A DNA stretch of 64,000 nt from a virus (IMGVR_UViG_3300028559_000026:12488-76487), one strand, 5' to 3'. Positions 16,574 to 48,236 are shown, counted from the first letter of the stretch. Numbers and translations: made by a program. Notes: generated by a model from the sequence alone, not told the origin.

Positions 16574-17794
16574 TTACTTTGTTTTAACGGGTGGAGCCAC
16601 AGCGGAAGTCCTAGATCCAAAAATCCCACTACGGATACGTGCCAATACAGATCCGGCAGCTTGTGGTTTAGGGATAAGTGGATTAGCGCCAGTAGGACCA
16701 TCAGCGGGCTTTACTGAGCTTTGCGTAGTAGACGCAGGCACCCCATTGGGACGATTGAAGTCAAGGCTCTGTGCAGGCTTCACACTGGAGCTGATCGGAA
16801 TTGAACGAAAATTGCCCGCTGGACCCTTAACGCCCGGAAGTGTTTTATTTGGTGCGTTGGCTGGCAGTTCGGTATTCTTTGGCAGTAGACCGAGTAGGGC
16901 CTTGAATAGTTCCTCTACAGGTGCATCTTTGGAATAACCCTTATAACCAGTAAACTCAAACTTAACCAGCTTCTCTGCTTTCTTCTCAGTCTCAGCGCTA
17001 GGACCGGTCCAGGATGCGTTATTGCCCATTAGACGCTCATACATAATAAGCATGTTTGCGTGCTGACTGGCTGAAACCTCATCCTTGTAGCTAATAGACT
17101 TGTTTAGACCATTAAGGTGATGTGCAGCACCACTAAGCAATTCAGCCTTGGACATCGAAGCGGGCATATGCTTAATGCGGAGTGCTTCAAACTGTTTCTC
17201 GGTTTCATTCTTCATTACCGAAGTTGATACACTGACACGGGAAGTAGTAGAGGTGGATGCTGCTTTAGGTGGCTTAGCGGTAAGCACCTTAGACTTGGCA
17301 GAGAGCTTGGGTGAACCACCAGCGCCCGGTGGCTTAGCTGCAGGCACTTCAGCCTTTGTGGTTTTGTCTGGTTGCTTCTGTTGCTCTAGTGGCTTTACTT
17401 CTTTATGCTCTTGTGGTAGTGCGGCAATGGGCTGCTGCATCATACCGATACCCAGACCGGTTACGAATGAGCCTACACTCTTCTTAACAGGCTTGCCCGT
17501 ACCCTTACACATCTTGCAAAGAGAACTTGACTTTCCTTTGCAACCAGAGCAGGTTTCGGTAAGTGCCATCTCGTCCTTGCCGAGCTTAGGCTTTCCACCA
17601 CCAGAACCATCGCCGTTATCTACAGACTTCCCAGCCTTGGGCATACTTTTCAGCCCTTGTCCACCGATATTTTTATAACGATTCTTATCGGAATCATTTG
17701 CGTTATTCAGATTAATCAGGTCTTCGGACTTGAGAATATTAGTCAAACTCTTCTCAAGTCTTGAAAGTTGCTTTTCGATGTTTGTGTAATCCAT
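16574..17794 (-). CDS. Low-complexity putative head-internal protein rich in xxK[SA]E motifs
   Basis: AATCT-N7-ATG(17794); LEKSL, ILKSED, VKKSV, TTKAE, MSKAEL, LNKSI; CSGCKG/CKMCKG zinc knuckle. Confidence 0.65.
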   Translation of the reverse strand: MDYTNIEKQLSRLEKSLTNILKSEDLINLNNANDSDKNRYKNIGGQGLKSMPKAGKSVDNGDGSGGGKPKLGKDEMALTETCSGCKGKSSSLCKMCKGTGKPVKKSVGSFVTGLGIGMMQQPIAALPQEHKEVKPLEQQKQPDKTTKAEVPAAKPPGAGGSPKLSAKSKVLTAKPPKAASTSTTSRVSVSTSVMKNETEKQFEALRIKHMPASMSKAELLSGAAHHLNGLNKSISYKDEVSASQHANMLIMYERLMGNNASWTGPSAETEKKAEKLVKFEFTGYKGYSKDAPVEELFKALLGLLPKNTELPANAPNKTLPGVKGPAGNFRSIPISSSVKPAQSLDFNRPNGVPASTTQSSVKPADGPTGANPLIPKPQAAGSVLARIRSGIFGSRTSAVAPPVKTK

Positions 17795-17814
17795 AAACAC
17801 AAGATTAATTCGGT

Positions 17815-45356: not shown

Positions 45357-46086
45357 CGTGGTCCTTTTTAATAAAGGTTACTCGCCCGTCGTCGCCAAAG
45401 CCATATCCAGGCAGGAGCATGACTAATGAACAACGGCAGTATGGATGAAGACCGCTAACGCTAGGTTTATTATCGCCTTTCTTGTGATATCCGTGTTGTA
45501 GATCGCTCATTTTCCAGACAATTGGCTTGCCATCAGGGCGAAGGTGTAATCGACGACATTCTTTGCACATAAACCCATCACGAACAGTGACAAAGTATAC
45601 TGATGGGTCGTCGATGTTCATTGATGAACTAACTTTGACAATGCCGTCCAAAGTACCAGTATTTCGAGCAGTGGTGCTTTCAGTGTCGATAATGCGCTTG
45701 ACTGCATCAGAAGTTTTAGCAAAGATTTCCACCAATTGTCCACCTAGCAAGGTATTTGGATTGCCTTCAGGATTGGTCCTAACGAAATTTTCAATCGTTT
45801 TGACTACAACAGCCTTAGCTGTATCCCGTTGTGAATTGATATGATTTTCAGCTATACTCATCACTGAATTTAGCAGTTCTTTATCTGGGGACGTATTGCC
45901 CTCGTTTACTGATGAGGAAACATACAAATTGGGCAAGGAAAACTGCATACCAACCTGTTTCCTGGTCAGTCTCAGAGAATCGGATTTATCTGCTGGCTTG
46001 CCTAAGAACTTATCCTTAAGGCGAGAAAACACAGCATCAATACCTTTCTCTATTTTAGAGATTTGGGCTGGTGATAGAACTTTCAT
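45337..46086 (-). CDS. MuF / gp7-like head morphogenesis protein
   Basis: RIIDTE, CKEC, LHPYCRC; directly after portal. Confidence 0.85.
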   Translation of the reverse strand: MKVLSPAQISKIEKGIDAVFSRLKDKFLGKPADKSDSLRLTRKQVGMQFSLPNLYVSSSVNEGNTSPDKELLNSVMSIAENHINSQRDTAKAVVVKTIENFVRTNPEGNPNTLLGGQLVEIFAKTSDAVKRIIDTESTTARNTGTLDGIVKVSSSMNIDDPSVYFVTVRDGFMCKECRRLHLRPDGKPIVWKMSDLQHGYHKKGDNKPSVSGLHPYCRCSLVMLLPGYGFGDDGRVTFIKKDHDEYSNQ

Positions 46087-48236
46087 AGAGTGTCCAAGGT
46101 TTCAGTCACCAGTTTCTCAAAATCCGTATTTAGACTTTGTATCAGTGACTGAACCATATTTCTTTGTTTAGCCAGCATCTTCTTTTTGGATGGTGGTAAT
46201 TGTTTTTCACTCTTAGATAGCAGACCAAGAGCCTGATCAATGGATCGAGTCAAATCGGTTGTCTGCGGCTGCTGGTCGTTTTGTACGGGGTCTTCGTCCC
46301 CCGCATTTGTAGCCTGTGCTGCGCCTTGCGGAGCTTGGTCCCCTGGCTGGCCTTGGGAAGCCTCTGCAGGCTGTGCCTGACCACCCCCTTGGGGTTGCCC
46401 TTGCTGCTGTCCTGGAGCGCCTTGCTGTGCCTGCTGCATTTGTTGCTGCTGCATTTGCTGCTGTGCTTGCATAGCTTGCTGTTGCTGGAAAAAGAATGGA
46501 TCGCGTACGTAATTCCATTTCGGGTCTTTGGAGGCATTAGCCATACCAAAGAAGGTTTCCAAAATAACACCTACAGGCACGTACTTATCCATAATGGCCT
46601 GCAACTGCTGATTTAAGGGGAAGTCGCCGCCGACCATATTAGGCAAGGGCTTCTTTTCCACACGACCCAAGATTTCGTTGTAGGTCATATGGACGGCCAT
46701 ATCTTGCTGGATACGGACACTTTCTTTTTCTGCAGTTTCTGCATCCAAACCGACCAGCTTTAGCACACAAATCTTGCTTAGCTCGTAGTCGATAAGGGGC
46801 ATGATGTCAGTATTGAGAAAGTCCTCAAACTGCTTGACTAGGGGACGTATACCTAAGTCACGATGCGCCTCAAGGCGGTACTCGTTATTGCTTTCAGACA
46901 GTGCTTGGTTGTTGGTACCCTTGCTGAGATAGGCCCACCCAGGCAATTCTTCAGGACTCATCTGGAATGCGGACAGAATCGCTCTGGCGTTCATATCTGA
47001 TAGATACTGAAACTCCATATCCCGAGTACCAGAATCAATGGCCTGCCAAGCGACTTCATCTTCACTACCAACACCAAAGACAGGCATTCTCCACGAATTC
47101 TGGACAGAGTTAATGGATGCCTGAAACTGTTGCTTAATGTGAGACACCATATGTTCGTCGGCATCATCACTCTTAATAACAATCATGCCACGGGTGGCGC
47201 GACCAGATTGAAAATATAGTTTATTGTGCGACGTGATATTGATGTGTGTCGTCACCTGAGTCAGCATTGTATCCAGTGGGGTAACTGGATATCCATTCAT
47301 CTCCCAATCCAAAACTGGATAGAAATTCTTTACCAATAACTCATCATCAGTGAATGCCTGACGGGGAGTGCCTTCAATAACCTGAATCCACTGATACTCA
47401 TCATCAACAAAACGGTCGGGATTTAGCTTTTCATTACGAACCTGCTCAAGCAAGCTCTTGCTTGATTCACGGATACTTTGTGCTGCGTTACCATGTGGTA
47501 CACTCTTATAGATAGTTCCAGCATCAACTGGTCTAAAACCATAAAATTCCCACTCGCCAGTTTGCTCATCTAGGTTGCGCACTACTTCTACAGCAATACG
47601 ACCCACAACCAGTGCGTTTCGGGTAGTCTGATACAGAAATTCATTAAAGGACAGGCGTGCTTCTTTATCCCACCCCTCCTGAATACCACAGTTATTAACC
47701 AGCTTAACTGCCTTACTGATACGCTTCTGGATACCTTCTTTCTCCTCGGTAGTCATATTTTGGAGATGTGACTTGGTGGGCTCAATCACAAAACCTGGAC
47801 TAAAACGGTCATCTCGTGGTCTACCAAACACCGACATTTGGTTAGAACGTGCCTGTACAATACAAGCCACCAGCTCATCTTGAATGGAGATACGCTTCAA
47901 TACGCTGTCAGGCAGTAGGCGGGTCTTTTGCTTATAAATACCGTGATACTGGTCCCCATTGGTGGGGTCTACTTCAAAAGCCAGCCGCTCGATGGAATTG
48001 GATTCACCATCGAGCTTACGATTAAGTGCTTGTGCTTTGGATAGCTTTACAGTCTTGTCAGTTTCATCCTTAAACATATCCGATTCATCAAGCCTATCAA
48101 CAAAACTTACCTTAACGCTTTTAGGCTTAGGTTTTACAGCAGATAGTGTGGTAATGGCCTGCTGAGCTTTGGATAGCTCTGAACGAGTATCATCCAAACT
48201 CTTCTTTAAGGTTTCAAATTCTTTGTTCTTACGCAT
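46083..48236 (-). CDS. Portal protein with Gln-rich C-terminus
   Basis: RPVDAGTI, NGYPVTPLD, YFQSGRATRGM, RDMEFQ, AFQMSPEE. Confidence 0.92.
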   Translation of the reverse strand: MRKNKEFETLKKSLDDTRSELSKAQQAITTLSAVKPKPKSVKVSFVDRLDESDMFKDETDKTVKLSKAQALNRKLDGESNSIERLAFEVDPTNGDQYHGIYKQKTRLLPDSVLKRISIQDELVACIVQARSNQMSVFGRPRDDRFSPGFVIEPTKSHLQNMTTEEKEGIQKRISKAVKLVNNCGIQEGWDKEARLSFNEFLYQTTRNALVVGRIAVEVVRNLDEQTGEWEFYGFRPVDAGTIYKSVPHGNAAQSIRESSKSLLEQVRNEKLNPDRFVDDEYQWIQVIEGTPRQAFTDDELLVKNFYPVLDWEMNGYPVTPLDTMLTQVTTHINITSHNKLYFQSGRATRGMIVIKSDDADEHMVSHIKQQFQASINSVQNSWRMPVFGVGSEDEVAWQAIDSGTRDMEFQYLSDMNARAILSAFQMSPEELPGWAYLSKGTNNQALSESNNEYRLEAHRDLGIRPLVKQFEDFLNTDIMPLIDYELSKICVLKLVGLDAETAEKESVRIQQDMAVHMTYNEILGRVEKKPLPNMVGGDFPLNQQLQAIMDKYVPVGVILETFFGMANASKDPKWNYVRDPFFFQQQQAMQAQQQMQQQQMQQAQQGAPGQQQGQPQGGGQAQPAEASQGQPGDQAPQGAAQATNAGDEDPVQNDQQPQTTDLTRSIDQALGLLSKSEKQLPPSKKKMLAKQRNMVQSLIQSLNTDFEKLVTETLDTL

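Follow-up and report, generated by a model that had tools for sequence, protein, structure and literature searches.

A lysine-centred motif shared by structural and multi-enzyme proteins in the head module of an Mx1-like phage probably marks prohead-protease cleavage sites

The window analysed here, a 64,000-nucleotide stretch (IMGVR_UViG_3300028559_000026:12488-76487) of a 76.5-kb virus contig, contains the head-assembly module of an uncultured Mx1-like myovirus, with a complete head-and-neck module on the minus strand. One short motif is common to the capsid N-terminus, the scaffold, the portal, the protease and a series of multi-enzyme proteins encoded in this module, as an initial annotation had proposed; every motif instance quoted there was found at the gene named. 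The best explanation, to which we assign a probability of about two in three, is that the motif represents prohead-protease cleavage sites dividing head-cargo polyproteins. The protease would be a serine protease of the assemblin/T4 gp21 fold, located at the N-terminus of a protein of 1428 amino acids (aa). It would recognise [LIVM]-x-K followed by Ser or Ala (sometimes Met) and usually Glu, most likely cutting after the Lys. The same signal would mark the capsid N-terminal peptide, the scaffold, both ends of the portal and the C-terminal border of the protease itself, and equally the linkers of multi-enzyme proteins (mCpol-like with three GNATs; Nudix, helical repeat and kinase; cyclase-like; further kinases). 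Such chains would enter the prohead as it assembles, be cut to single modules during maturation and stay in the head, and the freed enzymes would be delivered with the phage DNA. We infer the cutting, the enzyme that cuts, the exact scissile bond, packaging, injection and the roles of the enzymes in the host.

Enrichment of the motif in head-region open reading frames (ORFs), which the annotation had set as a check, was measured with the strict form [LIVM]-x-K-[SA]-E and with the head module taken as positions 16574-48236. On the window contig, 15 strict motifs were present in 10,336 aa of head-module ORFs and 1 in 14,387 aa elsewhere (Fisher p=2e-5). Shuffling within each head-module protein gave an expectation of 1.4±1.2, and none of 2000 shuffles reached 15. 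Myxococcus phage Mx1 (OR576727.2), whose whole genome was stitched from four pieces for counting, provided an independent replicate, with 15 strict motifs inside its head module against 4 outside it, where 43,110 residues were counted (p=3e-8). Eight related IMG/VR contigs were found; when the two long ones, G001 (160 kb, ~99% complete) and G002 (121 kb), were pooled with the window and Mx1, the counts were 55 in head modules and 14 elsewhere (11-fold, p=3.6e-21). Greedy ORF calling chose wrong-strand ORFs at the GC-rich loci L006 and L007, and the statistics do not include these loci. Enrichment disappeared when the K was changed to R, and dropping the hydrophobic residue at -2, the S/A or the E cut the head-to-rest ratio to 1.1-1.9. 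A motif-blind comparison of tripeptides between head modules and the rest placed KSE at the top of 2007 (57 versus 21, p=1e-18), and [LIVM]xE, patterned on the T4 L/I-x-E motif that follows an N-terminal targeting peptide of ~10 residues, was not enriched in head-module proteins (ratio 0.91). Varied codons were used at the 15 sites of the window (AAA/AAG, TCN/AGT, GAA/GAG). Thus it is the peptide, and not the DNA, that is conserved under selection.

The same enrichment was seen in homologues from metagenomes. A set of 110 Nudix/kinase polyproteins (543-1731 residues, found mostly on contigs of 150-178 kb) has shuffled architectures that include Nudix, PI3/4K-like kinase, GNAT, ART-PolyVal, ParB, His_Phos_1 and other domains, and it contained 131 strict sites, compared with 14±4 in shuffled sequences. 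The protease module matched 777 representatives of clusters at 50% identity; among the 150 matches listed, most are 600-1900 residues long with the module N-terminal, and these 150 fusions contained 160 strict sites (22±5 in shuffles). Homologues of the mCpol/GNAT polyprotein (n=19) contained 32 (2.5 in shuffles). Tail sheaths of this clade served as the control: 120 homologues (101,578 residues) contained 9 strict sites, compared with 5.4±2.3 after shuffling. The density of sites is therefore 1.1-1.7 per 1000 residues in the cargo and protease-fusion sets and 0.09 in tail sheaths. Scaffold proteins are rich in Lys, Glu, Ala and Leu, and chance or the composition bias of helical head proteins might be thought to generate such matches. 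However, composition-preserving shuffles produced about ten-fold fewer of them, the K-to-R change abolished the signal, and the result was replicated in four genomes and ~280 homologues with a clean tail-sheath control. These observations refute an explanation by chance or composition, whose probability we regard as negligible.

The structural proteins that carry the motif, together with the MuF-like protein encoded next to the portal, are as follows.

46083-48236, minus strand: portal protein (PF04860, E 1.2e-10)
45337-46086, minus strand: MuF-like head protein encoded after the portal (match to Phage_Mu_F at E 0.0086, below cutoff)
35186-35959, minus strand: scaffold-like protein, upstream of the capsid gene, with a Pro/Gly/Ala-rich N-terminal half and a helical C-terminal half
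33759-35171, minus strand: major capsid protein (phrog_752, E 1.5e-47), 60% identical to the Mx1 capsid protein

The capsid protein gives the best indication of where the chain would be cut. Its candidate maturation site is DLIK11↓ALEAG (arrow, proposed scissile bond; Lys codon at 35139-35141), and L-x-K-A-[LM]-E is kept in the four genomes. The protein is homologous to SPO1 gp6.1 (9vel, E 5e-21) and to the phi812 capsid protein (5lii). The phi812-type protein has been deposited both at its full length of 463 aa (5lii) and as a chain of 439 aa starting SFQTG (9row); the natural phi812-type cut is therefore VVK24↓S25, after Lys24. These deposited chains bear out the statement made in the annotation that Twort/SPO1-type capsids are cut after a Lys that precedes Ser. 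Literature searches yielded no usable published cleavage sites for the SPO1, A511 or Twort capsids, and the K↓S cut was read from the phi812-type sequences. The window sequence DLIK↓ALEAG aligns with DVVK↓SFQTG of phi812-type phages and ALNK↓ALEAG of SPO1 gp6.1, and because it thereby aligns with the phi812 mature N-terminus we place the cut after Lys. Judged by this alignment, the most likely register has a hydrophobic residue at P3, Lys at P1, Ser or Ala at P1' and Glu at P2'.

The scaffold-like protein contains AMK151↓SE, LKK166↓SL and LNK204↓AE. It is weakly homologous to its counterparts in Mx1, G001 and G002, each of which has 2-5 sites. The portal has N-terminal sites at LKK12↓SL, LSK23↓AQ and LSK67↓AQ and a C-terminal site, LLSK675↓SE (46212-46214), after a poly-Gln tract; the latter is kept as ISKSE in Mx1, LTKSE in G002 and LTRSE in G001. 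The Gln-rich low-complexity tract itself (46250-46560, minus strand; residues ~560-665) is present in all four genomes and varies in length. The MuF-like protein has a loose match only, ADK34↓SD.

The candidate protease is the N-terminal module of the following protein.

40574-44860, minus strand: 1428-aa protease-headed protein, with an N-terminal assemblin-fold module and a C-terminal cargo domain containing two inteins

Its gene lies between the portal and the scaffold and capsid genes, and the order portal, MuF-like, protease, scaffold, capsid is syntenic in Mx1, G001 and G002. An AlphaFold (AF2) model of the module, built from 42 sequences, had a predicted local distance difference test (pLDDT) score of 83.6 and comprised a confident core (residues 1-175), a disordered linker (178-228) and three helices (227-283). 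The best structural match to the core was T4 gp21 (5jbl_B), with a Z score of 10.4 and a root-mean-square deviation of 2.6 Å over 123 aa. It was followed by ~37 herpesvirus proteases (assemblins) at Z 5.8-9.6, and the next unrelated fold scored 5.2. These Z scores are from VIA-align; Foldseek alone was weak (best E 2.5e-3), and the ESM Atlas gave leads only, to S78 and S77 clusters at 0.92-0.93. On the evidence of the model, the core has the fold of T4 gp21 and herpesvirus assemblin, which supports its designation as a prohead protease in the initial annotation. H46, H104, S129 and D168 are invariant in the sequence alignment of 42 homologues, which makes His46 and Ser129 candidate catalytic residues.

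Two features of the protease protein connect it to its proposed substrates. The linker 178-228 (window 44150-44330, minus strand) carries VLSK212↓TLTAG, a copy of the capsid N-arm with the consensus L-x-K-x-L-T-A-G....A-P-S-x-L-x-G-G-A-A-L-Q-x-E, in which Lys212 is nearly invariant. This copy may be mimicry for co-assembly with capsid subunits. In Mx1 the copy in the protease linker is nearly identical to the N-terminus of the Mx1 capsid protein. Secondly, the end of the module carries a conserved [VLM]-K-K-[SA]-E. Candidate self-cleavage sites in the window protein are VKK286↓SLAK290↓AE (codons 43991-44005), with a further site, VKK1376↓SE, at 40733-40735. In the 150 homologues, 46 strict sites fall 0-20 aa past the module end (46/138 full-length), and a second cluster falls in the linker after the core. 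A linker-type peptide, LAKSEDLSKMALA, has been named beside the capsid N-terminal peptide as a candidate substrate of the protease.

The remainder of the 1428-aa protein is interrupted by intein sequence (Intein_splicing PF14890, E 3.9e-9, over residues 672-1080). Two inteins only ~10 residues apart split the C-terminal domain (window 41600-43600, minus strand), for which Pfam, PHROGs and NCBIfam gave no assignment. The middle of the second intein reads as low-complexity nonsense, and a different frame on that strand contains a 323-aa ORF (41662-42633). G001 has a homologous intein (40-56% identity) in a 1467-aa protein (35924-40327).

The multi-enzyme proteins and related kinases are all encoded between the portal and tail-sheath genes.

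38559-40574, minus strand: 671-aa protein with a C-terminal PI3/4K-like kinase; blastp matches to the protease proteins of G001, G002 and Mx1 (805-1226)
37582-38559, minus strand: 325-aa cyclase-like fusion of an N-terminal domain and a GGDEF-like domain (DgcS, 8e-7)
28916-31885, minus strand: 989-aa Nudix-kinase polyprotein (NUDIX, E 1.8e-18; PI3_PI4_kinase, E 1.8e-6)
27648-28919, minus strand: 423-aa PI3/4K-like kinase (PF00454, E 2.1e-8), with LIK76↓NE before the kinase part
19624-22896, minus strand: 1090-aa mCpol/GNAT polyprotein (GNAT families, E 8e-27 in Pfam; mCpol, 26.4 bits, equal to its cutoff)

Single chains in the window thus combine an mCpol-like domain with three GNATs, or Nudix with a PI3/4K-like kinase. 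The 1090-aa protein begins with the mCpol-like domain (residues 8-117), followed by LDK130↓SE, a helical spacer, LAK225↓SEDLSK231↓MALA and GNAT unit 1; then come ALK492↓SEPLAK498↓MALA, GNAT unit 2, TAK777↓SEPLTK783↓MALA, GNAT unit 3 and a conserved C-terminal tail. Its mCpol-like N-terminal domain (22550-22896) and ~90-residue tail (19624-19900) are homologous to the opposite ends of a GNAT-less Mx1 protein of 468 aa; on sequence comparison, a conserved carrier protein seems to have received the three GNAT units as an insert. In the 989-aa protein a peptide of residues 1-28, ending at LGK28↓SE, precedes the Nudix domain (34-164), MDK183↓AE, a small alpha/beta domain (185-238), LVK253↓NE, a helical-repeat domain (254-553), VQK558↓SETLAK564↓SV and a kinase of PI3/4K-HipA-like type (565-989). 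Its K564 is invariant in 65 homologues. The Mx1 homologue of the 423-aa kinase has VMKSE ahead of the homologous region. The two domains of the cyclase-like protein are joined at ALHK163↓AE (38071-38073), and the Mx1 homologue matches GGDEF at E 1.3e-9. The 671-aa protein has no strict site, and loose ones at LEK257↓AD, LFK306↓ME and LLK315↓ND before its kinase. Pfam, PHROGs and NCBIfam gave no assignment for the N-terminal part of this protein or for several small proteins, and the labels 'HhH' and 'glycosylase-like' from the annotation could not be confirmed, since Pfam and NCBIfam returned nothing for the parts concerned.

If the motif were a cleavage signal, it should lie between domains rather than within them, and its position on domain linkers was the second check that had been set. 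Five domain types were delimited by iterated hidden Markov model searches across the 110 Nudix/kinase homologues. Only 27 of the 131 sites were inside domain envelopes, although the envelopes span 65% of residues (p=1e-25); 69% of sites, compared with 12% of random positions, were within 15 residues of a domain border, and many stood 2-10 residues ahead of a domain start. The AF2 model of the window Nudix-kinase protein (65-sequence alignment, mean pLDDT 84) showed four confident domains separated by segments of pLDDT <50 at 1-33, 165-172, 178-184, 239-252 and 554-562. The strict sites K28, K183 and K558 are inside such segments, and LVK253↓NE and LAK564↓SV are at segment edges; the matches at K231 and K716, which sit in helix or strand, are looser and outside the strict motif. 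Sites thus sit on predicted linkers, which are rich in Pro, Ser and Asp and are not coiled coils.

Sites also coincide with joints at which proteins are fused in one genome and separate in another. Alignment of the three GNAT units placed K-S-E-(D/P)-L-x-K↓M-A-L-A exactly at every unit junction. The cyclase-like protein is one gene in the window and two in Mx1 and G001, and LHKAE (residue 163) is at the joint. In Mx1, G001 and G002, the kinase that the window encodes in a separate 671-aa gene forms part of the protease protein, behind the protease. In a 1442-aa chain of G002, the MuF-like domain occupies the first 253 aa, followed by LEKAE at 256, ART-PolyVal at 294-508, IGKSE at 518 and DUF3626 at 593-823. 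Some domains have genes of their own in certain relatives and form fusions in others, and Met-Ala-Leu-Ala opens each GNAT unit right after the Lys. Both facts would also suit a motif that had nothing to do with proteolysis and was a relic of in-frame gene fusion, its internal ATGs still serving as starts, or of a recombination joint used in cassette swapping. We consider this very improbable. A DNA-level joint was rejected on the variety of codons at the sites, which leaves no conserved DNA sequence, and internal initiation at K↓MALA was judged unlikely as the upstream sequences lack the start signals of real genes, whether Shine-Dalgarno-like or the AATCT-N7 described below. Moreover, Ser or Ala rather than Met follows most sites, and the motif is present in single-domain structural proteins (capsid, portal and scaffold).

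The sharing of the motif by all prohead components could alternatively mean that it is a docking or targeting signal, which recruits proteins to the scaffold, capsid interior, portal or protease of the prohead and is left uncut there. In agreement with this, sites are often near N-termini (13/131 head proteins and 11/540 other proteins have one in the first 40 aa), and the capsid N-arm copy in the protease linker suggests co-assembly by mimicry. However, targeting would need neither a repeat between every pair of domains, nor doubling six residues apart (KSEDLSK↓M), nor placement in disordered linkers at fusion joints, and in phi812-type phages the capsid chain is known to be cut at the homologous position when it matures. 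One sequence could also serve both purposes, as the T4 capsid targeting sequence does. A purely targeting role therefore appears unlikely.

Cleavage might instead be due to another enzyme or occur at another time; a protease of the host, or a second one from the phage, could act in the cytoplasm or once injection has taken place. One candidate is the Clp-like protease encoded by Mx1. Cellular proteases commonly require Lys at P1, and for polyvalent proteins it has been suggested that peptidases of their own process them, perhaps following delivery (PMC5512222). Profile searches, on the other hand, found no zincin or other peptidase domain in the cargo proteins. The motif marks the classic substrates of prohead proteases (capsid N-terminus, scaffold, portal and protease border), and enrichment is confined to the head module. 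No site was found in the likely neck or tail conserved proteins (17815-18825, 25938-26768, 31824-32687 and 32688-33095) or in the adjoining sheath. A different protease is in our view less probable still than uncut docking signals.

Several observations weigh against cleavage by the prohead protease as set out here. The capsid site lacks Glu at P2' (K↓ALE) and has it at P3'. T4 gp21, the closest solved fold, cuts after Glu (PMC9026906, PMC3012670), so the cut might follow the Glu of K-S-E. Pfam, NCBIfam and PHROGs gave no match to the protease module (N-terminal 285 residues), and Pfam and NCBIfam, with Peptidase_S77, S78 and S80 as the families expected, gave none to any of its 42 homologues; its family assignment therefore rests on the predicted fold, and it would be a divergent branch of the prohead serine proteases of herpesvirus assemblin fold (MEROPS S21/S77/S78/S80). 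Strict sites also occur in the terminase, one in the window and two in the G001 protein; they lack conservation and probably arose by chance. About one-fifth of the homologous Nudix/kinase polyproteins have no strict site. Lastly, literature searches yielded no proteomic, N-terminal or biochemical data for this phage or for Mx1, whose genome note includes no proteomics, and no paper was found on such a motif or cargo in Mx1.

Prohead-protease cleavage of cargo polyproteins nevertheless remains the explanation that we favour, and packaging and injection of the cargo enzymes are plausible by comparison with known head proteins. A role in host takeover or anti-defence, as the annotation had suggested, is an analogy. 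Host cells turn spherical after adsorption of Mx1, according to a review (PMC6070905); this would fit injected effectors and is only a hint. One can go further and suppose that Mx1-like phages, a large and mostly uncultured clade, possess a plug-in system, in which any module joined by L-x-K↓S-E linkers to a carrier would be loaded into the prohead, then freed by the head protease for injection. The carrier could be that protease, a MuF-like domain, or the mCpol-like N-terminus together with the conserved tail of its protein. Where one gene stops and the next starts would no longer matter, carriers could exchange modules freely, and the injected set of cyclases, Nudix enzymes, HipA-like kinases, GNATs and ARTs would form a pre-made kit against nucleotide-signalling defences. 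We put this forward tentatively, with the odds leaning against it.

Other site-bearing proteins of the head module, and the genes that bound it, are listed here.

49216-51123, minus strand: terminase, 635 aa
between the terminase and portal genes, minus strand: conserved 320-aa protein
26744-27349, minus strand: two small proteins (111 aa and 86 aa), with LLK74↓SD and LSK24↓AE
24583-25374, minus strand: 263-aa protein with central-linker sites MAK109↓SE, LGK118↓SL, VIK129↓NE, IGK152↓AE and VTK202↓SQ
18836-19600, minus strand: 254-aa conserved head-module protein (phrog_16819), with N-terminal LDK13↓ML and AIK22↓SE
16574-17800, minus strand: 408-aa low-complexity protein with a CxxCxGxG-like zinc knuckle
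14036-16543, minus strand: tail sheath, at the other end of the head-and-neck module

From the portal side, the module reads terminase, 320-aa protein, portal, MuF-like protein, 1428-aa protein, 671-aa protein, cyclase-like protein and small proteins; then scaffold-like protein, major capsid protein, neck-type proteins, 989-aa Nudix-kinase, 423-aa kinase and small proteins; and, towards the sheath, the 1090-aa mCpol-like/three-GNAT protein, further conserved proteins and the tail sheath. Gene order in Mx1 is identical. The site LLK74↓SD corresponds to LSKSE in Mx1 and G001 and LEKSD in G002, and homologues of the 263-aa protein in Mx1, G001 and G002 have a site (VVKSE) at the last position. 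The 408-aa protein contains LEK17↓SL, ILK24↓SE, VMK197↓NE and MSK218↓AE, and its Mx1 counterpart has VMKAE. That homologue (L001 37603-39279) also showed a weak match to S-adenosylmethionine lyase (PF23780, E 7.6e-5, below cutoff) and one to DUF3293; if packaged, such a lyase would be an anti-restriction candidate. The initial annotation had placed the 408-aa and 263-aa ORFs at 16574-17794 and 24583-25365, slightly shorter than given by the longest-ORF rule used here. A sequence AATCT, ~7 bases and then the start codon recurs upstream of many late genes, where a Shine-Dalgarno sequence would stand; it was seen before the starts at 18825, 22896, 33095, 37571, 44860, 49198 and 17794. This signal suggests that the ATG at 17794 is probably the true start of the 16574-17800 ORF.

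Two further observations concern neighbouring genes. A dUTPase-like gene (23427-23870, plus strand) lies inside the head module on the opposite strand and is 52% identical to Mx1 61498-62118, which is far off among early or metabolic genes. The terminase large subunit of G001 (G001 16180-19044, L018) is 954 aa long, compared with 635 aa in the window; an insert of ~300 residues splits the alignment and is probably another intein.

If the cuts are real, the five-residue signal with Lys at P1 would be a new substrate code for a capsid-maturation protease, and a whole clade of ~160-kb phages would load strings of enzymes into the head, to be freed by the cut that matures the capsid. This would link polyvalent proteins with the internal proteins processed by prohead proteases, ideas so far treated apart, and would allow injected phage proteins to be predicted by a simple rule that needs only the sequence. 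As Mx1 grows on Myxococcus xanthus, the prediction is directly testable. The linker code could also serve for loading foreign proteins into phage heads.

The window phage resembles SPO1/Twort-like phages (Herelleviridae) in its homologous capsid protein with an aligned N-terminal site of Lys followed by Ser or Ala. In HK97, gp5 is cut at K103↓S104. We know of no multi-enzyme cargo proteins punctuated by the capsid-site motif in SPO1/Twort-like phages or HK97.

In T4, the internal proteins IPI-III and Alt are packaged in the head and trimmed by the protease, and Alt is an enzyme injected to modify the host; gp21 removes one short N-terminal peptide from each small protein, following an L/I-x-E rule (PMC9026906, PMC3012670). 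The window system shares the gp21 protease fold (Z 10.4), and its hydrophobic P3 and fixed P1 resemble L/I-x-E. Unlike in T4, P1 is probably Lys and the predicted sites separate several enzyme modules in one chain; the window cargo has no sequence similarity to T4 proteins, so that the analogy with the internal proteins is functional only. In phiKZ-like phages, gp175/gp245 cut the ejection or inner-body proteins; in SPN3US, the gp245 protease has been shown experimentally to use 14 A-x-E sites in nine substrates, which include the capsid, the N-terminal propeptide of the portal, the C-terminus of the protease itself and ejected internal proteins, with multiple cuts per propeptide (PMC10052503). 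One motif shared by capsid, portal, protease end and internal proteins is common to both systems, by prediction here and by experiment there, and the conserved site at the end of the window protease module parallels the C-terminal propeptide that gp245 removes from itself. The motif and the phage lineage differ, and SPN3US cuts remove propeptides whereas those predicted here would separate tandem enzymes.

The polyvalent proteins of phages and plasmids each combine 2-15 unrelated domains (ART, kinases, GNAT, GGDEF and others) and are frequently associated with MuF or portal proteins; they are predicted to be packaged, delivered and processed mainly by zincin-like metallopeptidases, and assemblin-like peptidases among them are rare and always C-terminal (Iyer et al. 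2017, PMC5512222). The proteins described here are similar in having at least two unrelated catalytic domains per chain (GNAT, kinases, ART, GGDEF, Nudix-linked) encoded among virion genes. ART-PolyVal (PF18760) occurs in the Mx1 and G002 counterparts, and G002 fuses its MuF-like domain to ART-PolyVal and DUF3626, whereas the window MuF-like protein is separate. They differ in that most of the 150 representatives listed have the assemblin-fold protease at the N-terminus, that the other polyproteins would be cut in trans, that a five-residue signal punctuates the domains, and that the kinases are PI3/4K/HipA-like rather than the truncated Ser/Thr kinases of PMC5512222. The idea is therefore not new in kind, as it fits polyvalent proteins (PMC5512222) and the internal or ejection proteins of T4 and SPN3US (PMC10052503); what differs here is the five-residue signal with Lys at P1, which punctuates enzymes arranged in tandem, together with the frequent role of the N-terminal protease as carrier and the set of enzymes carried.

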